Source: a plasmid
Sequence record: NZ_CP118990.1
Strand: one strand, 5' to 3'
Length of the DNA stretch: 64,000 nucleotides
Program-made: the position numbers and the translations under genes
Shown: in pieces, positions 2,409 to 61,438 of the stretch
How the letters are laid out: each line of letters begins with the position of its first letter
Position numbering within the stretch: position 1 is the stretch's first letter
The notes under the pieces: model-generated
Told to the model about the DNA's origin: nothing
The model's database searches: none
Seen by the model: the letters and a program-made list of their open reading frames with translations, nothing else

Positions 2409-2977
2409 AACACCTCCAGGTTCGACAACTGGCCGTAGCCAAATACCCGCTTACGGCCAATGCCATAAACAACAGCCTGCTCGGCCAGCGCAACATCCTT
2501 GATCTCAGCAACGACACTGACCGGGTTGCACTGGAGGGTGAAGCTCTGTTTTTTCTTGAGGTAGCGCTCCAGGTAGGGGCTGTTGGCTGAGTGGCTCTGG
2601 AGCGAGAGTCCTGCCCCTTCGCACTGCCTGGCTAGAACATCAGGCAAGATGGCCATCGGCAGATTCATCGACCGTTTTTTGGTGGTGCCTGGGATCGGAT
2701 GCTTGATTGGGAAGCAGAAGTTGAGGTTGAACATGACTGCATCTGCCACGTTCAGTTCAAGTTGTACGGCTTGTTCGCCAGCTAGGCCAAGTTGCGTTGC
2801 CGATCGCAAGTAGATAACGGTTGTGTTGGGCTCATGAGGGTGAGCAATCCGCCGCCAGCTATAGGGGACTTTACAGCGCAATGTCTCCTGTACCAAATAA
2901 TCAAGACGCTGGTGGACCAGATACGGAAGAGACGGGTCAGTTTCACGCAGTTTGAGGGTGTTTTCATAGTAAATCAT
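2405..2977 (-). CDS. cas6: Cas6-family crRNA endoribonuclease (Csf5/Cas6e-like)
   Basis: 190 aa. C-terminal glycine-rich loop GIGRKRVFGYG matches the Cas6 GhGxxxxxGhG signature. 4-bp overlaps with both neighbours (operon). Confidence 0.7.
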   Translation of the reverse strand: MIYYENTLKLRETDPSLPYLVHQRLDYLVQETLRCKVPYSWRRIAHPHEPNTTVIYLRSATQLGLAGEQAVQLELNVADAVMFNLNFCFPIKHPIPGTTKKRSMNLPMAILPDVLARQCEGAGLSLQSHSANSPYLERYLKKKQSFTLQCNPVSVVAEIKDVALAEQAVVYGIGRKRVFGYGQLSNLEVL

Positions 2978-3810
2978 TGGAGCTTGTCCGCGATGTGAAT
3001 CAGCTTGAGGCGCTGGTGGGGGTCCGCCGGTAAAGTGCGAAATATCGTGCCGAACGATGGTTTTTTGCTGATCTGTTCACTGGCCTGCTGGGGGGTAATG
3101 CGTCCGTTCGAGAGGCCAACGACTAACTTATTGAAGGCGTTGCGTTCCTGACTTGTTAGTGTGTTGAGCCCCCCTGATAGCCGCATGGCCGCATCCAGAT
3201 TAACCGTGCATTCGACTCGGGTAACTGAATCCATACCGGCGTCACTACAGCAGTAGAGCGCCTGCGGTGACAGAGATATGGTCAACCCTCGCATAAGCGC
3301 CGCGGTTTTACGTCCGAAAGATTCGATGTATAGCAGAGGGAATTTTGCATTCTCTGCGATCCATGGCAGGTGACCACCAACGGTAATCTTCACCACATCG
3401 ACGTGCTCTAAAAATGATGCAGGGAACTTGTCATACACCCCTGGTGGGGCTAGGAGCGTTGAACGCTGAGGCTTACCTGGGACATCTGCAATTTCGTGCA
3501 CCCAACCGACACCACTCATCATTCCAAAGCGCTGGCCCACCTTCTTGTCGCTTTTCCCGGCAGTTCGCTCATTACCCATGATGTTGGGGTCGGTCACAAA
3601 CATGGCCTGGCAAGGAGCACAGTGGTTGAACGGCGTTTTATAGCTATCCAGACCTTGATAACCCACACGGTCAAACGAGCTTGCAGGGCGCTTGCAGCAA
3701 GAACATGCCGCACCAGTCTTTACAGCTTCTCCCAAGGCTGGAGCCAAAATATGGGTGAGGTTGGCATAAAGAAGATCAATTGGATGTTGCACGTCACCTC
3801 CGAGAAACAT
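2974..3810 (-). CDS. csf1: Type IV effector-complex subunit, candidate Csf1 (Cas8-like large subunit with zinc finger)
   Basis: 278 aa. N-terminal CxCC...CxxC (CSCCKRP...HCAPCQ) as expected for the Csf1 zinc finger. First gene of the minus-strand operon. Identity is inference; could alternatively be Cas5/Csf3. Confidence 0.45.
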   Translation of the reverse strand: MFLGGDVQHPIDLLYANLTHILAPALGEAVKTGAACSCCKRPASSFDRVGYQGLDSYKTPFNHCAPCQAMFVTDPNIMGNERTAGKSDKKVGQRFGMMSGVGWVHEIADVPGKPQRSTLLAPPGVYDKFPASFLEHVDVVKITVGGHLPWIAENAKFPLLYIESFGRKTAALMRGLTISLSPQALYCCSDAGMDSVTRVECTVNLDAAMRLSGGLNTLTSQERNAFNKLVVGLSNGRITPQQASEQISKKPSFGTIFRTLPADPHQRLKLIHIADKLQ

Positions 3811-3930
3811 TCTGAAACAGTTTCACATAAGATAATAGATTTCTTTTTTTTGTAAAGAGGCAGGTCCTTGATAATCGACCGTTTTTAGTGGCCTGGTAGA
3901 AACGGGTGCTGTATAAGCTAAAACCTCGGT

Positions 3931-4055
3931 ATGCCGCCCTTTGGCGGGGGTTAGCGGTTTGAGCCAGCGCAAAAACAAGCCAGAGCAGAGCCATGCTGGA
4001 GTGCCTCCCAGTGGCGGGGGTTAACAGATGAATGGCAACCTCTGGGGTTGAACGG
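3931..4055 (+). repeat. Degenerate CRISPR-repeat-like motifs (orphan mini-array relic) in the intergenic/promoter region upstream of csf1
   Basis: ccgccctttggcgggggttagcgg (3931-3957), cctcccagtggcgggggttaacag (4001-4027) and a weaker ctctggggttgaacgg (4038-4055). Compare the array consensus ccccgcaggcgggggttaacgg at 6955-7650. Same polarity as the main array. Confidence 0.5.
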
Positions 4056-4097
4056 AGGTAAAGCTCCGGGGGCCATAGCCCCTATGTTGGGAGCGCC

Positions 4098-4817
4098 ATG
4101 TTCAGTGACATTTTACCAACGGAACAAAGTTCTGGTGTTATTTCAGGGGGAAGTATGAAGGGTAATATAATTTCATGGAAAGATGAAAAAGGCTTCGGCT
4201 TTATAAAAAATGATGAGAATGGCGAACATATATTTTTTCATATATCGAGCGTTATAAAAGGGACGAGGCAGCCTATTGTTGGTGATGCAGTTACATTTGA
4301 TGTAGGGGTTGATTCCAGCAACCGAAAAAAAGCAAAAGATATTTTTATTGAAGGGGTGTCATTTACCAATATCCCAAGGCGAGTATTTACGGAAAAGGTT
4401 AAGCGCGACCGTTTCGATTATTATTGTTACGTCGCGATAGTGTTATCAGTGGCAATAACACTCGCTGTGTATATTAAAATGGGGCAGCCTCGACTGGCAT
4501 TATTTCCCGCCGCCGTTGCTATAATGCTGTTTTTGTATATCTCCGTCCGTACTAAAAAACCTGCAAATGACATATTCTCATGCGGGAAATGCTCATCAGT
4601 GGTTAGACATGACGCAAGAACCATTCGGGCATGGAATAAGGGTGCGTGTAAATTATATTGCAGAACCTGCAATCAGAACTGGCATCGTGAAAAGCCACAA
4701 AGGGATAGCACTAAAAAATATAATCGCCCTCAGAAGTCTGGATGTCTAGGGGTATTATTATTTATAACATTCGTGCCGGTATTTTTAATTTCAAGCATCA
4801 TCACCTTACTGGTGTAG
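4098..4817 (+). CDS. Cold-shock-domain (CspA-like) protein fused to a C-terminal membrane / Cys-rich zinc-ribbon region
   Basis: N-terminus KGNIISWKDEKGFGFIK...HIFFHISSV carries the CSD RNP1/RNP2-like motifs. Two hydrophobic helices (YYCYVAIVLSVAITLAVYI, ALFPAAVAIMLFLYI). CGKC...CRTC motif. Locally AT-rich. Confidence 0.6.
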   Translation: MFSDILPTEQSSGVISGGSMKGNIISWKDEKGFGFIKNDENGEHIFFHISSVIKGTRQPIVGDAVTFDVGVDSSNRKKAKDIFIEGVSFTNIPRRVFTEKVKRDRFDYYCYVAIVLSVAITLAVYIKMGQPRLALFPAAVAIMLFLYISVRTKKPANDIFSCGKCSSVVRHDARTIRAWNKGACKLYCRTCNQNWHREKPQRDSTKKYNRPQKSGCLGVLLFITFVPVFLISSIITLLV

Positions 4818-4969
4818 AAAGAAATGTTGAAGCCTTGTTGCCTGGACTATTAACTGAATGAGCCTCATCATAATCATGGGTGAGGCTTTTTTAATGGCCC
4901 GATAAAGGGCGAAAAGTGTCGCTCTCAAATTGCCACGCACTGACCGCGTTTCCCAAGTCGATGACACTG

Positions 4970-5105
4970 AATAGTGTACAAACTTTATTATGCAAGTGAC
5001 TGATCTGTAGTGTCCGTTGTGTACAAACTTTACTGTCCGAGTCACCGCTACGCCGTGTTTGCTGCGTACAAACTTCATTGTCACTGTACTGCTTGCGCAG
5101 CCTAA
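4970..5105 (+). repeat. Three direct iteron-like repeats with exact 45-bp phasing (core GTACAAACTT)
   Basis: Cores at 4976, 5021 and 5066. Units: tagtGTACAAACTTtatt, ttgtGTACAAACTTtact, ctgcGTACAAACTTcatt. Confidence 0.6.
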
Positions 5106-5288
5106 CGGCGCCTGCGGCCACAGTACAGACAACCCCGCATTGCGTACTTCTCCATGCCCTCCTTCACACACAGAGGCTCAAGCGTGTCTCTGTGTGTCTC
5201 TACTTATTAAAATGATTCTTTGAAAAAGTAGTGTTTATAAAATAGGATAGTTGGCAGGAAAGTCCTTCATTTTTCACGGAGAGAACGC

Positions 5289-5819
5289 ATGAGAGAGGTG
5301 CACTTCATTAGCCAGGTCGAGGCCGAAAAACTGGCGCCGGTTGCCGGTGCGGCGATGATCTCGATCACCGACCCGGACAAACCGGAGGCGGCCCTGGGAG
5401 ATTGGCAACTCTTGTATCGGGACAGCTTTTACGATGGTGGCTACAGTGAGGACACCATCCGTACCATGAAAGGGTCTTTTCGGATGAGCTACGCATCCTA
5501 CATTGACTCCCATCAGGCGAAGAACCTATCCAACTACATCGATGAGCTGGTGCAGAGCGGCATCAGCCAGATCTTTGTTCACTGCTACTACGGGGAATCC
5601 CGAAGTGGCGCGATTGCTTTGTATCTGTGCAACAAACATGGATTCACCTCGAACAAGCCCATCACCAAGCCTAACAGGACGGTCTACGATCTCCTCTGCT
5701 CCCCTTTGAAATATGAAGCACTGATACAGAGTTACGAAACACAAGATGCTGCGCCTACCGAGAGTATCTACACCAAGATATGGGATTTATTGCTCGTGGC
5801 TATCGGTGTTAGGAGGTAA
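5289..5819 (+). CDS. Cys-based protein phosphatase-like protein (CX5R P-loop)
   Basis: 176 aa. VHCYYGESRSGA matches the HCxxGxxR(S/T) signature of the PTP/DUSP superfamily. Confidence 0.45.
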   Translation: MREVHFISQVEAEKLAPVAGAAMISITDPDKPEAALGDWQLLYRDSFYDGGYSEDTIRTMKGSFRMSYASYIDSHQAKNLSNYIDELVQSGISQIFVHCYYGESRSGAIALYLCNKHGFTSNKPITKPNRTVYDLLCSPLKYEALIQSYETQDAAPTESIYTKIWDLLLVAIGVRR

Positions 5820-5821
5820 CT

Positions 5822-6826
5822 TTGCACCAACGGAACAACCGCGACACCACTGAACTTTCACACGCGAAAGTCATTGTCTTGCCAGAACAAACCTCAGGTG
5901 GAGGCCTCCCGCAAGTCACCGGGGGGCTCAGAAGCGCACAAGATAATCCGGCAGTTGCATACCTGATCAGCCTTGGCTCCAGGCGCAGTCGGCAAACCAT
6001 GGGCTCATTTCTCAGCATTGTTGCTCGGATGATCGGGTACCAAAACCTGCGTGATTGCGCGTGGGAGTCGATGCGGCGGCATCATGTCCAAGCTGTGATC
6101 CAAATGCTCAGTGACTCTGACCGAGCGCCAGCTACGATCAATACCTACCTGGCAGCGCTGAAAGGAGTTGCCCTGGAAGCGTGGACAATGAAGCTGATTG
6201 ATACCGACAGTTACCAGCATATCAAGCAGGTGCGTTCGGTGAGAGGCTCTCGTTTACCCAACGGGCGGGCCCTCGAAAAGCACGAGGTCAGAGCCCTTTA
6301 TTTCACATGTGAAAACGATCGGAGCTCCAAAGGGCTGCGTGACGCAGCCATCCTTGCTGTTTTAGTCGGGTGCGGACTTCGGCGCTCAGAGGTTGTCGCC
6401 CTCGATATGGAATGTGTCATCACCAGGGATCAGGCACTTCGTGTGCTCGGTAAGGGCAATAAAGAACGCATCGCCTATGTGCCTGACGGGGCATGGCAGC
6501 GGCTTATGCGGTGGGTGGAGGAGGTTCGTGGTGATCAGCCGGGATCGCTGTTTCAGCGGATCAGGCGGTTTGATGATGTCACCGCCGACAGAATGACTGA
6601 CCAGGCTATCTATCACATTCTTGAAACGAGAAGGATTGAGGCGGGGCTGGAAAAATTCGCTCCTCATGATCTCCGCAGAACCTTTGCATCGGCCATGCTG
6701 GATAATGGCGAGGACATCATCACGGTCAAGGATGCGATGGGCCATGCCAGTGTCACGACCACGCAGAAGTATGATCGTCGGGGAGATGAGCGATTGAAAC
6801 AGGCCAGTCGGCGACTCGATTTTTGA
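5822..6826 (+). CDS. Tyrosine site-specific recombinase (phage integrase family, XerC/XerD-like)
   Basis: C-terminal catalytic motifs: VGCGLRRSEVVALD, GKGNKERIAYVP, HDLRRTFAS, GHASVTTTQKY. The true start may be an internal Met (e.g. MGSFLSIV). Confidence 0.8.
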   Translation: MHQRNNRDTTELSHAKVIVLPEQTSGGGLPQVTGGLRSAQDNPAVAYLISLGSRRSRQTMGSFLSIVARMIGYQNLRDCAWESMRRHHVQAVIQMLSDSDRAPATINTYLAALKGVALEAWTMKLIDTDSYQHIKQVRSVRGSRLPNGRALEKHEVRALYFTCENDRSSKGLRDAAILAVLVGCGLRRSEVVALDMECVITRDQALRVLGKGNKERIAYVPDGAWQRLMRWVEEVRGDQPGSLFQRIRRFDDVTADRMTDQAIYHILETRRIEAGLEKFAPHDLRRTFASAMLDNGEDIITVKDAMGHASVTTTQKYDRRGDERLKQASRRLDF

Positions 6827-6829
6827 GTC

Positions 6830-6954
6830 GGAAGACCAATGTTAATCAGTTGCGCACTCAGAATTTAAGAGGTAAATTTCAGCCACCAATCCTCAAGTGT
6901 GCGAACATCGCTGAACGTGACCTAATCTTGATGGTAATTGTTGACTTGGTAAGT
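6830..6954 (+). promoter_or_regulatory. Putative CRISPR leader
   Basis: About 125-bp AT-richer segment directly 5' of the first repeat. Polarity inferred from the repeat orientation (stem then TTAACGG 3' handle) and from the degenerate terminal repeat at the other end. Confidence 0.4.
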
Positions 6955-7650
6955 ATCGCCCCCCCGCAGGTGGGGGTTAACGGGCGTGTAAAGCGTCCAA
7001 CGTGACTTACAGAAAATCGCCCCCCCGCAGGTGGGGGTTAACGGAGTGGATGCATTTGCTGACTTCCACCGATGAATCGTCCCCCGTGCCTGGGGGTTAA
7101 CGGTACTCGGCCTGGCACAACATGGACCTCACCCGATTTCTCCCCCGCAGCTGGGGGTTAACGCCGCGAGGGGAGCTGTTGCTATAGCGGGAATGAATCC
7201 CCCACCGCAGGCGGGGGTTAACGGCGTCAGCACATCACACAGCTATTGAGCACCAGATCGATCCCCCGCAGGCGGGGGTTAACGGTTTTCGATGATGTCG
7301 GTGGCGTTTGCCATCATATCGCCCCCCGCAGGCGGGGGTTAACGGACGCTGATAACGCATATCGACGACGGATTTGAATCACCCCCCCGCAGGCGGGGGT
7401 TAACGGCCCGCGGGATAGAGAAGTGGTGCCATCAGCGCATCTCTCCCCCGAGCCTGGGGGTTAACGGTGCCCTTTTTGTGCACAAACAAAAAAATCAAAA
7501 TCCATCCCCCTGTTACGGGGGTTAACGAAGCGGGACGTCGTGGTGCTGTGCTGCGGCTGCATCTCCCCCCAGCAGGCGGGGGTTAACGTTAGCTTCACAC
7601 CAGGCCTTGATAGCATCGCCGATCTATCCCTCGCGACTGGGGGTTATCGG
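6955..7650 (+). CRISPR. CRISPR array: 12 repeats of 29 bp (consensus ATCGCCCCCCGCAGGCGGGGGTTAACGG) and 11 spacers of 31-33 bp
   Basis: Period 61 bp. Repeat starts near 6955, 7016, 7076, 7137, 7198, 7259, 7320, 7381, 7442, 7503, 7564, 7622. Palindromic stem CCCCCGC/GCGGGGG. Many repeats carry substitutions that keep stem pairing. Terminal repeat is degenerate (GGGGGTTATCGG). Confidence 0.9.
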
Positions 7651-7657
7651 GAGGAAG

Positions 7658-7834
7658 CATGGCACAACAGAACGTTTTCCTTCTTCGATTGAGGGTTATG
7701 CGCGAAATGGCCGCCGACACCGACTCGGTGATCTCTGCCGTCACGGCCGAGCTGCCAGTCGGTTTCCCTGAGCACATTAGCAAGGCCATTTTTTCTGGGT
7801 TGTCGGCTCAAGCAGCCAAGCTTCTGAGAGGGTG
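7658..7834 (+). CDS. Small ORF (58 aa) whose start lies inside the terminal CRISPR repeat
   Basis: ATG at 7658 is preceded by GGGAGG formed from the last repeat. Below the 60-aa cutoff of the ORF track. Stop is 4 bp before the next ORF. Speculative. Confidence 0.3.
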
Positions 7835-7838
7835 AGAA

Positions 7839-8336
7839 ATGGCTGAAATGAGCAATTTTGGGGAAAGCTTCAAGCTTTATTCCGACGGGCAACGAGATCC
7901 TGTCAAGCGCACAGGCCTGAACGTCCAGTACACAGAGACTCGGGCCAACTACCCGACAATCAGCATCGAGATCGCTCCCATCCGGGCGGCAGGAGCAAAA
8001 GCAGACTGGGAGCAGAAGATCACAGTACAACTGACCAGGGCAGAGCTGACCGCGTTCTGCGGTGTGATGTTTGGGCTCAGGAAGGATGCCACAGGGTCAT
8101 ACCATGGTGACGCCAACAACAAGAGCTTCGCGACATACTGCAACGGCAAGTCCGGCGTCGCCATCCTTCTCATGGCACGAGGGAACCAGTACCAGCACCT
8201 CATTACACCCGATGACCGAATGGAGCTAGCTGTATTCGCGATAAGGAGGTTGGCTGAGGCATGGAAGGTCACCCCTTCTGATGCGATTGCGATGCTCCGT
8301 CAAGGGGCGTGGATGAGCAAGAATCAGGTAAATTAG
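7839..8336 (+). CDS. Hypothetical protein (165 aa)
   Basis: RBS-like GAGGGTGAG upstream. Followed by an intrinsic terminator. Confidence 0.45.
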   Translation: MAEMSNFGESFKLYSDGQRDPVKRTGLNVQYTETRANYPTISIEIAPIRAAGAKADWEQKITVQLTRAELTAFCGVMFGLRKDATGSYHGDANNKSFATYCNGKSGVAILLMARGNQYQHLITPDDRMELAVFAIRRLAEAWKVTPSDAIAMLRQGAWMSKNQVN

Positions 8337-11530: not shown

Positions 11531-11668
11531 TGACATGACGGGATAAGCAAGGTGGGCCGTTGAAAACGGCCATATCCGGGGTTTGGGGAGCAATGGAACC
11601 AAAAACCAACGTAAGCTCTGAATCCCACCGTAAAGGGGCTTTCCGATCTCCAGCTCACCCGCCAGGCA

Positions 11669-12067
11669 TTACTCTCTGATCAGTGCCTCGATGATCGGGC
11701 AGATCGTTCCGCCGTCTCCCGCATCACATTGCTGCACCAGTTCGCCTAACAGTTGCTGCATGACGACCAAGTCGGCCATCTTCTGCTCGATCAACGCGAG
11801 CTTGCGTGCAGCCCGTGCTCGCGTTTCGGCACAGGCGCACGACTCATCCAGCGTCAGCAGTCCACCGACTTCCGAGAGCGTGAAACCCAGCGCCTGAGCC
11901 CGCTTGATGAAACGCAGTCGCTTCACCATGTCCACCGGATAGCGCCGATGGCCACCCAAGGGTTTGGCTGGTTCATCCAGCAGCCCGCGTCGCTGGTAGT
12001 AGCGGATCGTCTCGACGTTCACCCCGGCGGCGTCTGCCAGCTTGCCAATGGTCAGCTCTGTGGCCAT
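11669..12067 (-). CDS. merR: MerR-family metal-responsive transcriptional regulator, divergent from merT
   Basis: [30 protein letters not shown]-terminal Cys cluster (DESCACAE, QQCDAGDGGTICP). Confidence 0.75.
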   Translation of the reverse strand: MATELTIGKLADAAGVNVETIRYYQRRGLLDEPAKPLGGHRRYPVDMVKRLRFIKRAQALGFTLSEVGGLLTLDESCACAETRARAARKLALIEQKMADLVVMQQLLGELVQQCDAGDGGTICPIIEALIRE

Positions 12068-12070
12068 CAC

Positions 12071-12135
12071 TTTCTCCTTGATTCCGTACTTTGGTACGGA
12101 GTTTAGAATAGCACCTAGGCAATCAGGCTCAGGAG
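12071..12135. promoter_or_regulatory. mer operator/promoter dyad
   Basis: TCCGTACtttgGTACGGA between divergent merR and merT. Confidence 0.6.
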
Positions 12136-12492
12136 ATGGGAATGGGGATGCAACTCACCGGGAAAGGCTCGCTGGTCGCGAGTTCGCTGACCGCCATCGG
12201 TGCGTCGGTGTGCTGTGTCGGGCCACTGGTGCTGTTGGCACTCGGTGTCGGCGGTACGTGGGTGGGCGCTCTGACCATGATGGAGCCACTACGCCCCCTC
12301 TTCATCGGGTTGACTCTACTGTTCCTGGGATTGGCATTCCGCAAGCTCTACCTGGTGCCACAGGTTTGTACGCCAGGTACACCCTGCGCCGATCCGCGCA
12401 CGCTCGTGCGACAGCGACTCGTGTTCTGGATCGTCAGCGTGCTGCTGCTCGGCCTATTGGCCGTGCCGTGGCTCGCCCCGCTGTTCTACTGA
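12136..12492 (+). CDS. merT: Mercuric ion transport protein MerT
   Basis: TM1 Cys pair (SVCCVGPLVLL) and cytoplasmic-loop Cys pair (CTPGTPC). Paralogous to the copy at 20088-20438. Confidence 0.85.
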   Translation: MGMGMQLTGKGSLVASSLTAIGASVCCVGPLVLLALGVGGTWVGALTMMEPLRPLFIGLTLLFLGLAFRKLYLVPQVCTPGTPCADPRTLVRQRLVFWIVSVLLLGLLAVPWLAPLFY

Positions 12493-12504
12493 AGGAGATT
12501 AACC

Positions 12505-12780
12505 ATGCGCAAACTGCTGATCGCCGTGCTTTTCGCCTTGCCCTTCGTGGCGCTGGCGGCTCCCCCGAAAACCGTCACGCTCGACGTGCAGAACATGACG
12601 TGCGGACTCTGTCCGATCACGGTCAAGAAGTCGCTGGAGAAGGTGTCCGGCGTGAGTGACGTCCAGGTCAATTTCGACCAGAAGACGGCGACCGTCACCT
12701 ACGATCCCGATAAGGCCCAGCCCGAGGCACTGACTGAGGCGACCGCGAACGCGGGATACCCCTCCACAGTGCAGAAGTGA
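12505..12780 (+). CDS. merP: Periplasmic mercury-binding protein MerP
   Basis: Signal peptide plus HMA motif MTCGLCP. Confidence 0.9.
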   Translation: MRKLLIAVLFALPFVALAAPPKTVTLDVQNMTCGLCPITVKKSLEKVSGVSDVQVNFDQKTATVTYDPDKAQPEALTEATANAGYPSTVQK

Positions 12781-12787
12781 GGTCACG

Positions 12788-13000
12788 ATGAGCGCCATTG
12801 TCCTTGAGTCCGTGCTGACTTGCCCGCGCTGCGGCTTCGCCAAGCCGGAAACCATGCCCACGGACGCCTGCCAGTTCTATTACGAGTGCAGCAACTGCAA
12901 GGCGCTGCTGCGCCCCAACCCAGGGGATTGCTGCGTTTTCTGTTCGTTCGGCTCGGTGAAGTGCCCGCCGATCCAGCAGCAGCTTGGGTGTTGCTCATAG
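12788..13000 (+). CDS. Small Cys-rich GDCCVxC-motif protein (mer-locus associated)
   Basis: 70 aa with about 10 Cys, including GDCCVFC. Confidence 0.5.
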   Translation: MSAIVLESVLTCPRCGFAKPETMPTDACQFYYECSNCKALLRPNPGDCCVFCSFGSVKCPPIQQQLGCCS

Positions 13001-13006
13001 CGTTTA

Positions 13007-13044
13007 GGGGGATCACAGGTCGTCGTCTGGATTACGCAGTGGCC
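13007..13044 (+). repeat. Candidate Tn3-family terminal inverted repeat
   Basis: GGGGGATCACAGGTCGTCGTCTGGATTACGCAGTGGCC. Starts with G-run and overlaps the tnpA 3' end, as is typical. No matching inverted partner found in the window. Confidence 0.4.
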
Positions 13045-16006
13045 GCAGCTCGCCGCGCGCAACTTCTTCCGGTACCGCAAAGGAATACCGCCCGAGCATG
13101 TTGATGTGCTCGTAGATCAGCGGCGATAGCCGGGCCAAATCCTCTTCCAGCACTGGATAGCCGTGCTGCTTGAGCCGTTCCACGGCCGCCGTCATGTAGA
13201 GGGTGTTCCACAGCACGATGATGTTCACCACCAGGCCCAGAGCACCGAGCTGGTCTTCCTGGCCTTCGCGGTAGCGCTGGCGGAGCTCGCCGCGTTTGCC
13301 GTGGAACACGGCGCGGGCCAGGCTGTGCCCGCCTTCGCCTCGGTTCAACTGGGTCAGGGTGGCGCGGCGCTTGGACTCGTCGTCGATATAGGTCAACGTG
13401 TGCAGAGTCTTTTCGATCCGCCCGAATTCGGCCAGCGCCTGGGCCAGCCGGGTGGGTCTATCTCCCGTTTGCAGCGTGCGCATGATGCCAGTCGCCGGCA
13501 CCCGGCCGAGTTTGAGCGAGCCGGCCAGGCGCAGCAGGTCGTCCCAGTGCTCGGCGATCAGGTCGAGTTTGACCGACTGGCGGGCCAGCCCGTTGAGCTT
13601 GCCGTAGTCCGCGTCCGGGCGCGTGCGCCAGAAGCGGGTACCGCCGACATCGGCCAGCCGCGGACTGAAGTGGTAGCCAAGTAGGCGGAAGAGCCCGAAC
13701 ACCACATCGCTGTAGGCCCCGGTGTCGGTCATGATTTGCGTCGGCTGCAACTCGGTCTGCTGTTCCAGCACGACCGCCAGCAACACCAGGCTGTCGCGCA
13801 GCGTGCCGGGCACGGTGATGGCGTTGAGGCCGGAGAATTGGTCGGAAATCAGGTTGTACCAGGTGACACCCCGGCCGGTGCCGAAATACTTCGGATTGGG
13901 GCCGGCATGCACGGTGCGCACCGGTATGACGAAGCGCATGCCATCGGCGGAGGCGACCTCGCCGCCACCCCAGACTTGGGCCAGTTCCAGTTGGCTTTGC
14001 GCTCCGACCAGGATGGCGTTAGCCGCTGACAGGGTGTCGTCGCGGATATAATTCTGGCTGACCCAGGACAGCCGGTCACGGCGCAGCGCCGGGTTGTCGG
14101 TGCGGATCAAGGGCTCCAGGCCGGTGTTGCAGGCCCCGCCCAACAGCACCGCGCAGAGGCTGGTGACCAGGTTGTCGGCGCGTGCATTGCGTTCGGAGAC
14201 ATGGGTGAAGGCCTCGGAAAAGCCAGTGCGGGCGGCGATTTCCAAGAGGATTTCCGGCAGATCGACACGCGGCATCAGGTCAGACACGGCCGCCCGCAGT
14301 TGCAGCAACGAGCAGGGCTCGTCCAGCTTGTCCAGCGCCCCGAGCGACAGTTCGGTCTTGCCCTCGGTGTTCTCGCTCAGTTGAATCGCCGGGTTGTCGG
14401 GCAGGCGCGCGGCTACTGCCAGCCAGGTTGCATCCAGCTCGACGGACAAGGCGTCCAGGGTGGTTTTGGCGTCGATGGTCACGCCCAGTGACCGGCAGAT
14501 GATCGGTCGCGCCGCCAGCCATTCGGCACCGTCGAGCAGGCCAAGGCGCGGGTCGGCATAGCGCCAACTGGGCGAGACGAAGACATCGCGGCGGCGCAGG
14601 GCCGTGCGCAGCGCATCGAGCGTGCAGAACACATAGGCACCCATGTCGAGGGAGCCATCTTCGCGGGTGATGTGCTTCTGCCAAGCCTTGGCCACGATCT
14701 CCTGCGGCGCGTCATCCTCTGGCTTCCGGCGCGGCAGGTTCAGTTGCAGCCACTCCAGACTAGCCGCCACGCCCTTGCCGGCCGGGCTGAAGCCGAAGCG
14801 GATGTGCTTGAGCAGGTCGGGCAGGAAGCGGCGCACGCTGCGGTAGCGCGCTTCCAATGCAAGAAAATAGACGTCATCTACCGGGCGGATCAGCGCGTTG
14901 ACCTCTTCCAGGGCCTTTTCCAGGGTGGTCCTCGGCAGGTCGTTGAACAGCCGGGCGCGCACGTTGTCATCGCTGATCGAGCTGTCCAGCACGACCTTGC
15001 ACGCGGCGGCGAGCGTCGCGGCCGACCGATCCAGGTCTTTCAGGCTGCGCATGCGGGCTTTCTTGTCGGCCTTCTCCGCGTTGCTGAACAGGTCGCGCAG
15101 CAAGGCCTCCAGGACTTCCAGTGCGTCGTCGTGCGCAGTCGCCTCCAGGCAGAGTGCGAAGGCCACCAGTGTCGCCATCCGCCGCGACGCCGGCAGCCGA
15201 TTAATCGCGGTGACCTTGGCCGTGTTGGCGAAGCGGGCCAGGGCGGCGATACGGCTGGGAGGGATGTGCGCCGCCGCCGGCAAGGTGATGCCGATGCCGC
15301 GCACGTCATCGAGCCGGCGCAGTGCCCGAATCAACGCGGGGCCACTGACCATGACCGGGCCGGAGCGCAATTGATCCAGCCGGGAGCTGCGGTTGCCTTC
15401 GGCCACCGTCAGCAAGTCTTGCAGTTGCAATCGCTGTTCCTCAGTCACGCTGCGGCCCAGCGTAAACCAGAGGCGTTCTTCGACCCGACTGCGCAACTGG
15501 GCGATAAAGCGCTCTAGTTGAGACACACCAGGCAGGAGGACTTTCTGTGTGAACAGCCACGAGGTGGCTCGCTCAAACAGCACTCCCGGCCGGTCGGTGC
15601 CCGTCCAGCAGAGGGCATACAGCCAGCGGCTCAAGCGAAAGCCGATGCCCGGATCGGTGAAATGACGATAGCCAAAGCGGTTCTGAATATCGGTGGCATG
15701 TATCCAGCGGCGATGATCGCTATAGCGCTGGAGGCAGTCGGGGTCTGGAATCGCCAGTTGTCGGCAAAGCACCTGCAGGACTTCCACCGGCACGGCGGCG
15801 GGCTTGTCCGGCAGAACGCCAACGAAGCGGACGGTGGTCAGCAGAACGGCATAACCCAGACGGTTATGGTTACCCCGCAGCACCTGGATGGCTTCACGGT
15901 CTTCATCGCTCAGGTGGAAGTAACGTTCCAGCTCTTCACGGCTGGGCGAATCAACATAGCGGCCAAAACCGTCGCGTTGCTCTTGAGTCAGAAAACCGAC
16001 CGGCAT
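13013..16006 (-). CDS. tnpA: Tn3-family transposase TnpA
   Basis: 997 aa. Tn3-type DDE transposase. C-terminus similar to the TnpA tail fused in the 40927-41547 remnant. Confidence 0.95.
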   Translation of the reverse strand: MPVGFLTQEQRDGFGRYVDSPSREELERYFHLSDEDREAIQVLRGNHNRLGYAVLLTTVRFVGVLPDKPAAVPVEVLQVLCRQLAIPDPDCLQRYSDHRRWIHATDIQNRFGYRHFTDPGIGFRLSRWLYALCWTGTDRPGVLFERATSWLFTQKVLLPGVSQLERFIAQLRSRVEERLWFTLGRSVTEEQRLQLQDLLTVAEGNRSSRLDQLRSGPVMVSGPALIRALRRLDDVRGIGITLPAAAHIPPSRIAALARFANTAKVTAINRLPASRRMATLVAFALCLEATAHDDALEVLEALLRDLFSNAEKADKKARMRSLKDLDRSAATLAAACKVVLDSSISDDNVRARLFNDLPRTTLEKALEEVNALIRPVDDVYFLALEARYRSVRRFLPDLLKHIRFGFSPAGKGVAASLEWLQLNLPRRKPEDDAPQEIVAKAWQKHITREDGSLDMGAYVFCTLDALRTALRRRDVFVSPSWRYADPRLGLLDGAEWLAARPIICRSLGVTIDAKTTLDALSVELDATWLAVAARLPDNPAIQLSENTEGKTELSLGALDKLDEPCSLLQLRAAVSDLMPRVDLPEILLEIAARTGFSEAFTHVSERNARADNLVTSLCAVLLGGACNTGLEPLIRTDNPALRRDRLSWVSQNYIRDDTLSAANAILVGAQSQLELAQVWGGGEVASADGMRFVIPVRTVHAGPNPKYFGTGRGVTWYNLISDQFSGLNAITVPGTLRDSLVLLAVVLEQQTELQPTQIMTDTGAYSDVVFGLFRLLGYHFSPRLADVGGTRFWRTRPDADYGKLNGLARQSVKLDLIAEHWDDLLRLAGSLKLGRVPATGIMRTLQTGDRPTRLAQALAEFGRIEKTLHTLTYIDDESKRRATLTQLNRGEGGHSLARAVFHGKRGELRQRYREGQEDQLGALGLVVNIIVLWNTLYMTAAVERLKQHGYPVLEEDLARLSPLIYEHINMLGRYSFAVPEEVARGELRPLRNPDDDL

Positions 16007-16009
16007 TGA

Positions 16010-16420
16010 TCACAGCACCTCGACGCAGAACACGGCGGGCGTGACGATCCGCGTGCGTTCGATGTGCCCGCGTTGCAGCAGGCCGGCGCGGCGATCACCG
16101 GTTATCAGGTAGTCCGCATCGCCCGCCAAGGCCATGGCCAGCAAAAACGAGTCATCCGGATCATCGGCTTCGACCTCGATGGTCAGGCGCTCCAGTACCA
16201 CAGCCCGTTGCAGGTTATTGATCATGGCGCCCACCTTGGCGGGCTGTAGGATGGCCTGAAGCTTGGGATAGCGGCTGGCTCGACGAATTTCATCGAGTTG
16301 CATCCGCGAGGTCACCACCTCGAAACGCGCCGCCCGCCAGGCACGGTAGATCGCATCGGGCGCGCCATGTGGCGAGATCAGGGCGCTGAACAGGATGTTG
16401 GTATCCAACACGACCCGCAT
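16010..16420 (-). CDS. vapC: PIN-domain toxin (VapC-like)
   Basis: MRVVLDTNILFSA... with conserved acidic residues; 136 aa. Confidence 0.75.
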   Translation of the reverse strand: MRVVLDTNILFSALISPHGAPDAIYRAWRAARFEVVTSRMQLDEIRRASRYPKLQAILQPAKVGAMINNLQRAVVLERLTIEVEADDPDDSFLLAMALAGDADYLITGDRRAGLLQRGHIERTRIVTPAVFCVEVL

Positions 16421-16659
16421 CAGCGCTTACGTGCCCAGTCGAGCGCTTCGTCAACCGCGTTGGTCAATTCTGCCTCACTCAGATGGGCGTTAGCGGCCTT
16501 GGCCTGCTCAGCGCTCAGCTCCAGGATGTGTGCCCGTACCGCTTCTTCGATGAAGCGCGACAGGTCGCCCTTACGGCCGCCGCCCTGGCTGGCCAGAAAC
16601 ATCCGAAGCGACTGGTCGGTGTCGGCCGAGACGGCGACATTCCAGCGAATGGTATTCAT
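16420..16659 (-). CDS. Cognate antitoxin of the PIN toxin
   Basis: 79 aa. Stop/start overlap with toxin (ATGA). Position between res and toxin is typical of Tn3-family TA passengers. Confidence 0.55.
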   Translation of the reverse strand: MNTIRWNVAVSADTDQSLRMFLASQGGGRKGDLSRFIEEAVRAHILELSAEQAKAANAHLSEAELTNAVDEALDWARKR

Positions 16660-16756
16660 AGCGTTCTCCGCTAATAGGTGTTTGTGTGTTTATACGCCAA
16701 TCACAAAGGGCGATGCAATGGTTCGACAAAACGAACGTATATGTGACAGGTACGAC
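16660..16756. promoter_or_regulatory. res site / divergent promoter region between TA-tnpA and tnpR
   Basis: Intergenic between divergently transcribed recombination genes. Inferred by analogy to Tn3-family organisation. Confidence 0.4.
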
Positions 16757-17371
16757 ATGCTGATAGGCTACATGCGGGTATCGAAGGCGGACGGCTCCCA
16801 GGCTACCGATTTGCAGCGCGACGCGCTGATTGCCGCCGGGGTCGATCCAGTACATCTTTACGAGGACCAGGCATCCGGCATGCGCGAGGATCGGCCCGGC
16901 TTGACGAGCTGCCTGAAGGCGTTGCGAACTGGCGACACACTGGTCGTGTGGAAACTGGATCGGCTCGGACGCGACCTGCGACATCTCATCAACACCGTGC
17001 ACGACCTGACTGGGCGCGGCATCGGCTTGAAGGTATTAACCGGGCACGGCGCGGCCATCGACACCACGACCGCCGCCGGCAAGCTGGTCTTTGGCATCTT
17101 CGCCGCCCTGGCCGAGTTCGAGCGCGAGTTGATCGCGGAGCGCACGATTGCCGGCCTAGCCTCGGCCCGCGCGCGCGGGCGGAAAGGCGGCCGGCCGTTC
17201 AAGATGACCGCCGCCAAGCTGCGGCTGGCGATGGCGGCAATGGGTCAGCCAGAGACCAAGGTCGGCGACCTGTGCCAGGAACTTGGCGTCACGCGGCAGA
17301 CCCTGTATCGGCATGTTTCACCCAAGGGTGAGCTACGTCCAGATGGCGAGAAGCTACTCAGCCGAATTTGA
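16757..17371 (+). CDS. tnpR: Serine recombinase resolvase TnpR
   Basis: MLIGYMRVSKADGSQ...; C-terminal HTH. ORF track extends upstream to 16298 but the conserved start is at 16757. Confidence 0.9.
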   Translation: MLIGYMRVSKADGSQATDLQRDALIAAGVDPVHLYEDQASGMREDRPGLTSCLKALRTGDTLVVWKLDRLGRDLRHLINTVHDLTGRGIGLKVLTGHGAAIDTTTAAGKLVFGIFAALAEFERELIAERTIAGLASARARGRKGGRPFKMTAAKLRLAMAAMGQPETKVGDLCQELGVTRQTLYRHVSPKGELRPDGEKLLSRI

Positions 17372-17423
17372 TGCCGGCATGAGGCAACGTAGCGACAGCG
17401 TGGTTTGTCTCAATGGGAAGCGC

Positions 17424-17660
17424 TCATGATCGACCTCTGAAGGCCCGCAGCAGCCGCGTCACAGACAGGACAAACAAGCCGGTCAGCGTGAGGGCTGCAA
17501 TACCCCAGTGCTCGCCGATGAACGCGCCGGCCGTCGTGCCGGCCAGCACAATGGCGAGAATCGGCAAATGACAGGGACAGGTGAGCACCGCCAGCGCACC
17601 CCACAGGTAGCCGGTGAACGGCTTGTGTGTCTCGGTCGGCAAGCGCTCGGGGCTGTTCAT
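17424..17660 (-). CDS. merE: Mercury resistance protein MerE
   Basis: 78 aa. LTCPCHLP motif. Confidence 0.85.
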
Positions 17661-18022
17661 GGCAGACTCTCCGCTTGCTGGGCCGGCGCGGTCGGCATCG
17701 CGGCCAACTGCACTTCCAGATCGGCCAACGCTTCGCGTCGGCGTTCGACGAACTGACTCAGCACGGCAAGCTGTGCGGCTGTTTCATCGCAGTCCGCCGC
17801 ATCCAGCGCCCGGCACAACCGCGCCAATGCGTCCAGGCCGATGCCCGCCTCAAAAGCGGCCCGCACAAAGCACAGCCGCTGCAAGGCGGCGTCATCGAAC
17901 AAGCCGTAGCCGCCCGTGGTGCAGGCGACTGGCCGCAGCAATCCGCGCAGCAGGTAGTCGCGCACGATATGCACGCTCACCCCGGCCTCAAGGGCCAGTC
18001 GGGACACTGTGTAGGCGTTCAT
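17657..18022 (-). CDS. merD: MerD co-regulator
   Basis: MerR-like HTH N-terminus [23 protein letters not shown]. Position after merA. Confidence 0.85.
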
Positions 18023-18039
18023 CGAACACCTCCTTTTCC

Positions 18040-19788
<1,749 letters not shown>

Positions 19789-19796
19789 TCAGTGCC

Positions 19797-20072
19797 TCAC
19801 TTCTTGACGCTGGACGGATAGCCTGCGTCTTCGGTGGCCTTGGTCAGCTTCTGCACGCTGGTCTTGGCATCATCGAAGGTGACAACCGCTTCGCGTGTCT
19901 CGAAGGTCACGTTAACTTTGCTGACGCCTTCGACCTTGGAAATCGCCTTCTTGACGGTGATCGGACAAGCGGAGCAGGTCATGCCCGGTACGGACAGCGT
20001 GACGGTCTGGGTGGCGGCCCACACGGGGGCAACAACGGCAGCGATGGCGAGAGAGGCAAACAGTTTTTTCAT
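19797..20072 (-). CDS. merP: MerP
   Basis: Signal peptide plus GMTCSACP. Confidence 0.9.
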   Translation of the reverse strand: MKKLFASLAIAAVVAPVWAATQTVTLSVPGMTCSACPITVKKAISKVEGVSKVNVTFETREAVVTFDDAKTSVQKLTKATEDAGYPSSVKK

Positions 20073-20087
20073 GATGAACTCCTGTGA

Positions 20088-20438
20088 TTAATAGAAAAAT
20101 GGCATGACGTAGGGAAATCCGAGCGCGACCAGAACCAGCGCGGCCACGACCCAGAAAATGAGCTTGTAAGTAGCGCGCACTTGGGGAATCGCACACACAT
20201 CCCCTGGTTTGCAGGCTTGCGCCGGTCGGTAGATGCGCCGCCAGGCGAAAAACAGCGCCACCAACGCCGCGCCGATGAAGATCGGGCGATAAGGTTCCAA
20301 CACCGTCAAGTTGCCGATCCAAGCGCCGCTGAACCCCAGGGCGATCAGAACCAGCGGCCCCAGGCAGCAAGCCGAGGCGAGGATGGCGGCTAGCCCGCCA
20401 GTGAAGAGCGCCCCGCGCCCGTTTTGAGGTTCAGACAT
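20088..20438 (-). CDS. merT: MerT
   Basis: 116 aa. [11 protein letters not shown] and CKPGDVC. Confidence 0.9.
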
Positions 20439-20440
20439 AC

Positions 20441-20509
20441 GCTTGTCCTTTCAAATCTGGATTGGATAGCTTAAGCTTACTTCCGTACCAATGTACGGAG
20501 TCAAGCGAT
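20441..20509. promoter_or_regulatory. mer operator/promoter
   Basis: cttccgtaccaatgtacggag dyad between merT and merR. Confidence 0.7.
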
Positions 20510-20944
20510 ATGGAAAAAAATTTGGAGAATCTGACTATTGGCGTTTTCGCCAAGGCGGCCGGGGTCAACGTGGAAACAATCCGGTTCTATCAGCGCAAGG
20601 GCTTGTTGCCGGAGCCGGACAAGCCCTATGGCAGCATCCGCCGCTATGGCGAGGCGGATGTGACGCGGGTGCGCTTCGTGAAATCAGCCCAGCGGCTCGG
20701 ATTCAGCCTCGACGAGATCGCAGAGCTGCTGAGGCTGGATGACGGCACCCACTGCGAGGAAGCCAGCAGCCTGGCCGAGCACAAGCTTCAGGACGTGCGC
20801 GAAAAAATGACCGACCTGGCGCGCATGGAAACCGTGCTATCCGAACTTGTGTTCGCCTGCCATGCGCGGCAAGGGAACGTTTCTTGCCCGCTGATTGCTT
20901 CGCTGCAAGGGGAGAAAGAGCCGCGTGGTGCCGACGCGGTGTAG
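20510..20944 (+). CDS. merR: Mercury-responsive regulator MerR
   Basis: [33 protein letters not shown]. Cys82, 117 and 126 equivalents present. ORF track start 20462 is upstream of the conserved start. Confidence 0.9.
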
Positions 20945-20960
20945 CCGAGGGTAGTTACGC

Positions 20961-20998
20961 CTTAGCGTGCTTTATTTTCCGTTTTCTGAGACGACCCC
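20961..20998 (-). repeat. Tn21/Tn501-type 38-bp terminal inverted repeat (mer end)
   Basis: Minus strand reads GGGGTCGTCTCAGAAAACGGAAAATAAAGCACGCTAAG. Confidence 0.8.
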
Positions 20999-25422: not shown

Positions 25423-26675
25423 CTATTCCATCCACAAGTCGTCGAGGTTCTTGAAGTTCCAGAGCGTCGGGTCTTCGGGGCCAGTGATACTGTCCTTGCA
25501 ACTCGTGGCCGCCAGGTCGATGGTCTGCATCGGGATCGGCTCTCTCGAGCGTAGCGAGAAGAACACGCGAACCTTGGGAGTCAGCAGTGATTCCATTCCC
25601 GGCTCAACGACAACGGCCAGACGCTGAGAGGACAGGCGAACCAAGGAGCCGACGGGGTAGATGCCCACGGCCTTGACGAAGGCGTGGAAGATGCGTTTGT
25701 CGAAATGGCCCTCCCACTTGGCCATCTGCCGCATCGCCGCGGACGGGTCCCACGGCTTTTTGTAGGCTCGCTCCGACGTCACGGCATCATAGACGTCGCA
25801 GATTGCGCCCATGCGGGCCAGGAGTGAAATGGCGTCACCGGCCAAGCGATCCGGGTAGCCGGTTCCGTCGATCTTCTCGTGATGGTGCAGGGCAATGTCC
25901 ACCACCCCGGGCTCGGCCCCGCCTGCGCGCAGCATCTTTGCGCCCTCCACAGGGTGGCGCTTCATGATGGCGAACTCGGCATCGGTGAGCTTGCCTGGTT
26001 TGTTAAGCACTTCCAGCGGCATCGCGGCCTTGCCTAGGTCGTGCATCAGTCCGCCGATGCCAGCCAGGCGCGTTTGCTCCTCGTCTAGATCGAGATGCCG
26101 GGCCAGCGATAGCATCAGGGCGCAGACGGCAACCGAGTGCAGGTAGGTGTAATCGTCGTGCGTTTTGATGCGTGCGACGCTGATGAGGGCATGAGGTTGG
26201 CGCAGCACCGAGGCAGCGATTTCTCCGACCAGCGGCAACGTCGTGCTTGGGTCGACGGCCTTGCCAAGCCGGGCTTCCTGGAACATGTCCATGACTTGGG
26301 ACTTGGCCGCAAGACAGAGTTTCCGTGCATAACACATTTCGCTCTCCATTGAGGTTGCGCCGTCACTTTTCTTGCTTAGTGGACTAGACGGCAGAGATTG
26401 CTCCTCCGACAATTCTCTGGGCTCTGGGCTCTGGGCTCTGGGCTCTGGGCTCTGGGCTCTGGGCTCTCTGGGCTCTCTGGGCTCTCTGGGTCGACTTGGC
26501 TTTTGGCCAAGTCGACCCAGACCTCCCCGACGCCACATTCTCGAATGGCAGAGAGATCCTGAGGCTCGGTCAGCAGGAAGCTGCCGCGCCAGAATGGGTG
26601 TCGAAACCAAGAGCCGGCGAGCTTGTGGATGTACATGCCGAGACGAAGCTCGGATACGGGAATGCGTTTTACCAA
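25423..26675 (-). pseudogene. DUF3391/HD-GYP c-di-GMP phosphodiesterase gene split between two reading frames at a heptanucleotide tandem repeat
   Basis: N-terminal DUF3391-like MVKRIPVSELRLGMYIHKL (ORF 26376-26675) and HD-GYP body (HDLGK, HHHEKIDGTGYP; ORF 25423-26610) are in different frames. Both frames traverse the repeat at 26415-26490. Confidence 0.6.
26415..26490. repeat. Tandem repeat: (GGGCTCT)x5 followed by (GGGCTCTCT)x3
   Basis: Seen directly. Encodes PEPRAQS/PREPRE-type repeats on the minus strand. Confidence 0.8.
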
Positions 26676-50255: not shown

Positions 50256-50261
50256 CCAGAA

Positions 50262-50281
50262 AATTTCACATGTGAAATTTT
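50262..50281. promoter_or_regulatory. 20-bp perfect palindrome AAATTTCACATGTGAAATTT (copy 1)
   Basis: Identical copy at 56916-56935. Upstream of traF. Confidence 0.5.
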
Positions 50282-50358
50282 TTTAAAACGCTCAATGCGC
50301 CCTTAATGGGCGCCAACACCTCTCTAGTTTCACACCTCGCCGCCCTACCATATAAAGC

Positions 50359-56895: not shown

Positions 56896-56915
56896 CCACT
56901 GCCGCCAAAAATTTC

Positions 56916-56935
56916 ACATGTGAAATTTTTTTGAG
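56916..56935. promoter_or_regulatory. 20-bp perfect palindrome AAATTTCACATGTGAAATTT (copy 2)
   Basis: Identical to 50262-50281. Upstream of the minus-strand membrane-protein gene. Confidence 0.5.
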
Positions 56936-60559: not shown

Positions 60560-61438
60560 TTAGGGTTGTGATACCCGACTGCGCAGAAATTCCCGTGGTG
60601 AACGGTATCCCAAGGCGCTGTGCGGGTGGTGCTCGTTATAATGCTCAAACGCAATAGCCAAATTGCCTACCGCTGTTCGGCTATCCGGTTTTGGCATCAT
60701 CTCGATATAGTCTCGCTTCATCGTCTTCACGAAGCTCTCCGCTATACCGTTACTCTGTGGGCTTCTCACTGCTGTCGTTCTGGGCTCCAACCCGATTTCT
60801 CGTGCAAACGCGCGGGTCTCATGGGCGCGATACGCCGAGCCATTATCAGTCAGCCACTCCACCGGTGATGCCGGCAACGAATCCCCAAAGCGACGTTCGA
60901 CAGACCTCAGCATGACATCTTGCACAGTGTCACTATCGTAACCCCCAGTACTGGCCGCCCAGTCCAACGCCTCCCTATCGCAGCAGTCCATGGCGAACGT
61001 GACTCGTAGTTTTTCACCGTTATCGCAGCGAAACTCGAAGCCATCTGAGCACCACCGTCGATTGCTCTCCTTGACGGCAACACACCCCTTATGTGCCTGC
61101 TGGGCCAATGGTGCAGCTGGTTTTCTTTCCAGCAGCAAGCCATGCTCGCGCATGACGCGATATACCCGCTTAGCGTTTACCACAGGTTGTTCTGTTGCCT
61201 CAGACTGACGCCGTAACAGCGCCCAGACCCGGCGATAGCCATAGGAGGGAAGCTCTGCCATCGCCTCCATGATACGGCCAAGTAAGGCTGCATCATCACG
61301 CTGGCGATGATGACGACCATCTTGCCAACCCGGTTTTCGATGAACACGAACGGATAGCTGCGCACGCGATACATTAAGAGCCTGGCTCACAGCACTTAAT
61401 CGTCGTCCCCCGGCAACAAGGGCGCATGCGCAATCCAT
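60560..61438 (-). CDS. IS3-family transposase OrfB (DDE integrase core)
   Basis: 292 aa. [10 protein letters not shown] (DDE E region). Confidence 0.85.

Follow-up and report, generated by a model that had tools for sequence, protein, structure and literature searches.

Short sequences resembling a CRISPR repeat beside a cas operon could be regulatory elements or the debris of an array. This question is raised by a 64,000-nt stretch of plasmid DNA (NZ_CP118990.1; hereafter the window), where such sequences lie upstream of a type IV-A3 cas operon. The analysis assigns a probability of about 70% to the reading that these relics are a vestigial CRISPR array formerly adjacent to csf1.

The cas operon and its upstream region

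The cas operon is classified as type IV-A3 and lies on the minus strand. In particular, csf1 (2974–3810; Cas8-like; PADLOC Csf1_2_IVA3, E = 2e-65) is the first gene, followed by cas6 (2977–2405; Cas6e-like; PADLOC Cas6_0_IVA3, 1.5e-23) and the dinG helicase gene (2408–459; PADLOC Csf4_0_IVA, 3.9e-154), and the next cas gene extends past the window's left end; in homologous loci, the genes after dinG encode products of 232-233 and 340-343 aa. The invariant cysteines of Csf1 are at positions 36, 38, 39, 64 and 67. The listed csf1 open reading frame begins with the ATG at 3810 and encodes 278 aa, and its homologues are 265-272 aa long. The GTG at 3792 has a GGAGG ahead of it, and in a related locus, L001, the earlier ATG does not keep the frame (both read by eye); the GTG is probably the true start.

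The relics lie in the gap between open reading frames at 3811–4097, which the original prediction had described as 290 bp upstream of a 'Zn-finger cas gene'; the gap measures 287 nt, and the gene is csf1. Its small open reading frames are unremarkable. Directly downstream of the relics is a gene on the plus strand for a membrane protein with a cold-shock domain (CSD; 4155–4817; Pfam CSD, E = 2.5e-10), whose true start is probably at 4155. A search of Rfam with 3700–7800 returned nothing relevant, and 3700–4200 has no blastn match in PLSDB.

A search for a sigma70 promoter overlapping the motifs had been proposed. The only sigma70-like site in 3700–4200 is on the minus strand (−35 at 3856–3851 and −10 at 3834–3829), where it is directed toward csf1 and lies 73 nt from the nearest relic, psiR1; the scan found no promoter-like site overlapping the motifs and none on the plus strand of this region. 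Reading by eye, a TATAAG at 3912–3917 (plus strand), also present in the related locus L005, is a possible −10 element for a transcript of the relics.

Two degenerate repeats upstream of csf1

Three strings had been singled out as matches to the repeat core, and all three are confirmed on the plus strand: GGCGGGGGTTAGCGG at 3943–3957, GTGGCGGGGGTTAACAG at 4011–4027 and CTGGGGTTGAACGG at 4042–4055. As predicted, they share the polarity of the distant 12-repeat array at 6955–7650. Further, the octamer GGGGGTTA occurs 14 times on the plus strand of the window, 12 times in the array and twice at the relics, and once on the minus strand, at 60946.

A PWM built from the window's own 12 repeats was scanned over both strands, and its matches were extended to 29 nt. 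It scores the degenerate repeats psiR1 (3929–3957, plus strand; GTATGCCGCCCTTTGGCGGGGGTTAGCGG) and psiR2 (3999–4027, plus strand; GAGTGCCTCCCAGTGGCGGGGGTTAACAG) at 16.7 and 13.5, placing both in the top three non-array sites of the window; after them, the best non-array match outside the transposon reaches 7.2. In locally shuffled sequence, there are 0.29 matches of at least 13.5 and 0.10 matches of at least 16.5 per 127 kb searched. Since shuffling yields 0.1-0.3 such matches per window, a single match is only marginal at window scale, and a covariance model (CM R1) of the whole clade was therefore trained on 61 distinct repeats and given the 5-bp stem as structure. Across the whole window, psiR1 scores 19.3 bits (E = 0.001) and psiR2 scores 11.9 bits (E = 0.23), which ranks them directly after the 12 array repeats as the top two non-array matches. 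Within the 350-nt intergenic stretch, their E-values are 5.5e-6 and 1.2e-3. A PWM match at 16468–16496 (16.5), inside the mer/Tn3 transposon, vanishes under the clade model and was rejected as chance.

Of the two to three repeat-core matches that had been proposed, psiR1 and psiR2 are therefore upheld by the covariance model and the third is not. A possible third decayed unit at 4028–4055 (plus strand; ATGAATGGCAACCTCTGGGGTTGAACGG) is not established: its motif at 4042–4055 scores 0.9 bits (E = 4.1 even in the 350-nt stretch), which is not significant alone, and the one feature in its favor is that GGGGTT.AACGG is unique in the window. This unit adjoins psiR2 with no spacer between them and has no C-run for a stem; counted by eye, the third motif ends 29 nt beyond the end of psiR2. 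A hairpin at 4062–4097 (plus strand) is a possible fourth relic, because in a global alignment CCATAGCCCCTAT--GTTGGGAGCG of the window pairs with CCTTTCCCCCT-TCGGTTGGGGG of L005, which is the fourth repeat (R4) of a short array there. Its fold has a free energy of −18.5 kcal/mol (z = −1.9), and the repeat covariance model does not detect it in the intergenic stretch.

The relics are irregularly spaced, which is compatible with decay by insertions and deletions. The distance from the start of psiR1 to the start of psiR2 is 70 nt, compared to an array period of ~61 nt, and the pseudo-spacer between them (3958–3998, plus strand) is 41 nt long, compared to ~32 nt for the array's spacers. The canonical repeat hairpin is a 5-bp C/G stem immediately 5′ of the TTAACGG end, and it is found in register only in psiR2, where one pair is G-U and the folding energy is −8 kcal/mol versus −13.2 for a true repeat. 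The same register leaves psiR1 with one non-standard stem pair; its best fold, a CCGCC/GGCGG hairpin, is displaced by 3 nt. The psiR1 repeat starts with GTATG and ends with TTAGCGG, so that its 5′-handle sequence contains a G. The repeats nearest to it are of the GTAT... type, with 5-6 mismatches (the csf1-adjacent repeats of L006 and those of Klebsiella), and the window's own distal repeats, of the ATCG... type, are further away.

Arrays upstream of csf1 in related loci

Related loci were found by their Csf1, oriented with csf1 on the plus strand and scanned for repeats; the Csf1 homologues come from Aeromonas or from unassigned contigs. Four Csf1 lineages of this Aeromonas clade (L006-8, L012, L020-23 and L024-25) have a full array that adjoins csf1 on its upstream side and runs divergently. 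The first repeats of these arrays lie 162-183 nt from the csf1 start codon, and the repeats at the csf1 end are identical and young-looking. Moreover, many short-read contigs of relatives break exactly at the first repeat upstream of csf1.

The closest counterpart of the relics is found in L005, whose Csf1 is 87% identical. It has a four-unit mini-array in the same place and orientation, followed by the same CSD gene (68% nucleotide identity to the window's). Three of its units are detected by the covariance model (R3 at 34.3 bits, R2 at 21.2 and R4 at 12.7) and R1 (7792–7820) only by the PWM (11.8), and the units are 62-63 nt apart. The region between csf1 and psiR1 (3811–3928), which would be the former leader and divergent promoter region, shares 84% identity with L005 as far as 3923, which leaves five bases to psiR1. 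In the global alignment, psiR1 pairs with R1, psiR2 with R3 and the 4062–4097 hairpin with R4, and read by eye, the 5′ part of the pseudo-spacer matches the L005 spacer S3 at ~23 of 27 positions (local score 33) and its 3′ part resembles the end of S2. The relic units therefore have no one-to-one alignment to those of L005; they are a recombined patchwork full of insertions and deletions rather than a conserved element.

L005 also has a second, large array beyond its recombinase. The repeats of this array (2475–3772) end in TTGTCGG and those of its csf1-adjacent mini-array (7605–7820) in TTAACGG, and L005 may thus combine a cas operon with a large array that does not match it.

Conservation of the relics among close relatives is patchy, being present in L005 and absent from L001-L004. 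The latter have the closest cas operons (88% nucleotide identity), and their homology stops at 3860; within 3811–3928, the 88% identity to L001 and L003 likewise extends only up to that position. The repeat scan found no repeat relics upstream of csf1 in L001-L004 and no repeats there in L016, L018 and L026-28. In L013-15, whose Csf1 is 59% identical, a mini-array of two units, 113 nt upstream of csf1, is the sole array of the contig; it is possibly independent of the window's relics. Among the relatives compared, only L005 has a clearly homologous mini-array. A contig with a 99%-identical Csf1 covers 38 nt upstream. A profile scan of genome contigs with the Csf1 alignment added only three distant enterobacterial or Photorhabdus loci (39-41% identity), and two metagenome scans and one viral scan found no match.

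Because arrays lie directly upstream of csf1 in the clade and L005 has its mini-array there, the relics sit at the ancestral start of the array. This agrees with the claim that the array once abutted the cas genes, and we infer that it did so in this lineage. The original prediction was to be given up if the motifs aligned no better than shuffled sequence and no homologous locus had repeats at this position; the motifs in fact score above shuffled sequence, and repeats are present there in homologous loci.

A separate, recombinase-linked array

The distal array (6955–7650, plus strand) has 12 repeats of 29 nt with a period of ~61 nt and a 128-nt leader of its own (6827–6954). It belongs to a module at 5289–8336, composed of a 176-aa gene (5289–5819), a tyrosine recombinase gene (5822–6826; both on the plus strand; Pfam Phage_integrase, E = 3e-32), the leader, the array and a 165-aa gene. 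The plus strand is taken as the transcribed sense of the array from the orientation of the Klebsiella IV-A3 repeat GTATTCCCCCCGTGTGCGGGGGTTATCGG, which follows its cas genes in the same orientation. In the recombinase-linked and A. media arrays, a motif, AACATCGCTGAA, precedes the first repeat by ~40 nt; it recurs in other Aeromonas array leaders and is lacking from the leader of the csf1-adjacent mini-array (all read by eye).

This module recurs in other loci (L029, 5468–8818; L001, 2000–4858; L005, 3928–5474). The stretch that spans the 176-aa gene, the recombinase, the leader and the first repeats (5198–7044) is 92% identical to L001 and 81% to L005, and the 165-aa gene beyond the array is shared as well. 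For example, the A. caviae conjugative plasmid pGSH8M-1-1 (L029, NZ_AP019196.1) has a 99.7% identical recombinase, directly followed by an orphan 17-repeat array that contains eight of the window's 11 spacers in the same order; a search of this plasmid found no Csf1 match.

The array's own leader, the shared module, the orphan copy on pGSH8M-1-1 and the differing repeat subtype fit two arrays better than one split array, and a single array split by an insertion was rejected. The distal array is independent of the csf1-adjacent one and is probably not its displaced form. The claim that the array was displaced by the recombinase-containing insert is thus not supported in that form, given the leader, the module, the orphan copy with 8/11 of the spacers and the other repeat type.

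Several further observations concern this module. Many Aeromonas plasmids, pAsa4 (NC_009349.1) among them, carry a recombinase with at least 92% identity, and the recombinase is consistently at the leader end of an array with no Cas1 or Cas2 nearby. The 12 distal repeats comprise 11 different sequences, a degree of variation that is unusual for a CRISPR array; the differences are spread freely over the loop and the 5′ third and spare the CCCCC/GGGGG stem and the TTAACG(G) 3′ end. Other Aeromonas arrays of the clade have the same pattern of repeat heterogeneity. A direct repeat containing ACCAACGGAACA (4105–4127 and 5816–5838) brackets the CSD and 176-aa genes, with its copies of ACCAACGGAACA (4115 and 5826) in the CSD 5′ UTR and at the start of the recombinase gene. 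It was considered as a recombinase site flanking a cassette and rejected: L005 has one copy (the first), 18 other loci have none, and 7 of 100 shuffles give at least two matches. The direct repeat may be chance.

Target searches

If the pseudo-spacers guided an effector complex, a target could lie near the cas promoter. A seed scan of 400 nt on either side of the csf1 start gave P = 0.46 for the pseudo-spacer and P = 0.07 for the sequence after psiR2. A search of the whole window with the 41-nt pseudo-spacer returned no target, and an any-register scan of the pseudo-spacers returned nothing anchored at the spacer's 5′ end; a match of 10/11 between 4032 and 3767 is offset from that end and was rejected. 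Local alignments of the pseudo-spacers to all related loci score 26-30, where shuffled queries reach 33, and these were put down to chance. The best protospacer hit in PLSDB has E = 2.

The same search gave a different result in L013-15. Seed positions 1-5 and 7-11 of its mini-array spacer, TTTATCAGATGC, find a match in TTTATAAGATGG (seed target TTTATAAGATG), ~48 nt upstream of the annotated csf1 start; it is the sole such site in 15.9 kb and falls in the putative −10 region of the locus's own csf1 promoter. The flank of the target is CAAC, not the NAAG motif that the Klebsiella IV-A3 system requires. Judged by this match, the mini-array looks like a CreR-type autoregulator in a type IV system. 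In L013, the mini-array is at 6888–6981 (minus strand) and the target at 7047–7058 (plus strand), and both are identical in L014 and L015.

A probable vestigial array and its alternatives

Under the favored reading, an array would formerly have begun directly upstream of csf1 and divergent from it, which is the usual layout of the Aeromonas type IV-A3 clade, and would since have shrunk to two pseudo-repeats around a 41-nt pseudo-spacer, plus one or two barely recognizable units. This reading is supported by psiR1 and psiR2 being the top non-array matches to the clade model, 70 nt apart on the array's strand, by the full arrays of four Csf1 lineages at this position, by the separateness of the distal array and by L005 as an intermediate state with four units at the same site, an 84% identical leader and the same CSD gene. 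Decay is indicated by the 70-nt spacing, the broken stem of psiR1, the near-unrecognizable third and fourth units and the lack of one-to-one alignment to L005. The separate recombinase-linked array 3 kb away would be the working one, supplying crRNAs with the same GGGGGTTAACGG 3′ end, and the stump would now be functionally dispensable, as suggested by L001-L004, which share the cas operon (88%) and have no relics. At most, the stump might be transcribed from the old leader within the 5′ UTR of the CSD gene, and psiR2 could still be a weak Cas6 substrate. Several observations count against the vestigial reading. Among the relatives compared, a clearly homologous mini-array is limited to L005; psiR2 can still form the in-register hairpin; and the stump is followed, in the window as well as in L005, by a CSD gene of the same orientation, an arrangement that might point to the stump having been kept as a 5′ UTR or a site of processing. 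Moreover, the seed match between the two-unit mini-array of L013-15 and its csf1 promoter makes it plausible that mini-arrays at the csf1 position are functional.

One alternative is a CreR (cas-regulating RNA) mini-array, in which a processed psiR1-spacer-psiR2 RNA would guide a repressing IV-A3 complex to the cas promoter or another one and so autoregulate the operon. The architecture resembles that of known mini-arrays, with two repeat-like sequences around a spacer in an intergenic region upstream of a cas8-like gene (cf. 10.1101/2023.03.03.530964); type IV-A is described as repressing its targets rather than cleaving them; and the L013-15 seed match has P ~0.01 by shuffling. Against it, the window's pseudo-spacers do not match the csf1 promoter or 5′ region beyond chance in any register, the three spacers of L005 likewise have no seed match (P ~0.99-1.0), the hairpin of psiR1, the would-be source of the 5′ handle, is broken or shifted and the handle itself contains a G, the relics are missing from L001-L004, the L013 match has the wrong flank, and type IV loci have no excess of repeat-like sequences (10.1101/2023.03.03.530964). 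On this evidence, the mechanism is unlikely for the window. The broader proposal that the stump is the type IV-A3 counterpart of CreR, tuning the cas operon or the CSD gene through a cr-like RNA or through Cas6 on the hairpins, with L013-15 as its clearer member, is quite unlikely, and a regulatory role of any kind is improbable. The claim that solo repeats are kept as autoregulating Cas6 or effector sites finds no positive support in this locus: the csf1 promoter has no seed match to the pseudo-spacers, no promoter-like site overlaps the relics, psiR1 has lost its canonical hairpin register, and L001-L004 do without relics.

It is also quite unlikely that the stump is a still-working one-spacer array, kept as immune memory, whose crRNA would act against a competing plasmid or phage. 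The in-register hairpin of psiR2, the correct orientation and position relative to the old leader, and the near-perfect repeats of the L005 equivalent (R3, 34.3 bits) fit such a role; the 41-nt spacer (versus ~32 nt), the broken psiR1 stem, the lack of a protospacer in PLSDB or in related loci, and a leader that, by eye, lacks the motif of active Aeromonas arrays do not. Still less likely is a Cas6-binding or processing element in the CSD 5′ UTR that would couple CSD expression to Cas6 levels or titrate Cas6. Its appeal is that the CSD gene is co-oriented with the mini-array in both loci, ~50 nt from the last unit to the CSD start in L005 and ~100-130 nt in the window, with no separate promoter-like site between the relics and the CSD gene; however, this evidence is purely positional and comes from two loci, the two CSD genes are only 68% identical, and L013-15 have a mini-array without a CSD gene. 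Finally, chance resemblance, or an unrelated GC-rich hairpin element, has a very small probability. Shuffled windows do produce PWM matches this strong, as the site at 16468 illustrates, but here two matches lie 70 nt apart on the array's strand, in the one intergenic region where relatives start their arrays and which is homologous to a bona fide mini-array in L005; the covariance model searches and the arrays of related loci effectively refute this reading.

Comparison with known systems

Returning to the vestigial reading, elements of this kind are already known: type III mini-arrays and a remnant of a Francisella V-A array have been read as array remnants (Shmakov et al., 10.1101/2023.03.03.530964). 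As with other vestigial repeats, decay is progressive, the relics sit where related loci have a full array, and the 5′ half has changed more than the 3′ half, a bias also seen in the variable repeats of intact arrays. In contrast to other vestigial arrays, the window's remnant is at the leader end, by the cas promoter, rather than at the trailer end, and its place has been taken by a second, independent array of the same replicon.

Many type I loci have mini-arrays upstream of cas8 whose spacers are partly complementary to the cas8 promoter; in the same survey, type IV loci were not enriched in repeat-like sequences (Shmakov et al., 10.1101/2023.03.03.530964). By its definition, a mini-array consists of a 20-60-nt spacer between two repeat-like sequences, located in an intergenic region of a cas locus (10.1101/2023.03.03.530964), and psiR1, the 41-nt pseudo-spacer and psiR2, upstream of csf1, have this architecture. 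As in the regulatory mini-arrays of Shmakov et al. (2023), a spacer has a repeat-like sequence on either side, the downstream one being more degraded, but the scans of the window returned no match with the defining PAM and seed complementarity to the cas promoter. As repeat-like hairpins that stand apart from an array, the relics also recall the Racrs (RNA anti-CRISPRs), which are described as being carried in viral genomes and suppressing CRISPR-Cas immunity (PMC10651486); unlike Racrs as described there, the window's repeats adjoin their own cas operon and derive from its former array.

The Klebsiella and Enterobacteriaceae IV-A3 systems (Pinilla-Redondo et al. 2020; Benz et al. 2023 preprint) have the same gene order of csf1, cas6, dinG and csf2/3 and, as here, a 29-nt repeat with a CCCCC/GGGGG stem and a GGGGGTTAxCGG 3′ end. 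They differ in where the array lies: after the last cas gene and co-oriented in Klebsiella (L010 and L019), and upstream of csf1 and divergent, or elsewhere on the plasmid, in the Aeromonas clade.

The value of the relics is mainly for annotation and evolutionary history. They indicate that Aeromonas type IV-A3, unlike Klebsiella, normally keeps its array upstream of csf1 and divergent from it, that a csf1-adjacent array can decay when a second, recombinase-linked array is on the same plasmid, and where the ancestral leader lay. They also caution that a repeat-like motif near a cas promoter need not be a regulator. Were the regulatory reading true, it would be the first cr-like regulatory RNA reported for type IV and would extend RNA-guided cas autoregulation to a type that is naturally repression-based; L013-15 would be the better test locus.

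Other features of the window

Three features elsewhere in the window were recorded. A Tn3-family mercury-resistance transposon at 11567–20995 has copies with ~96% identity on thousands of plasmids from Pseudomonas, Aeromonas and enterobacteria. The heptamer CTCTGGG is repeated perfectly in tandem 7.6 times at 26415–26467, within the open reading frame at 25423–26610 on the minus strand. Further, the 25-nt near-palindrome AAAATTTCACATGTGAAATTTTTTT occurs in two identical copies 6.6 kb apart (50260–50284 and 56908–56932), and the pair may be a shared operator or terminator.
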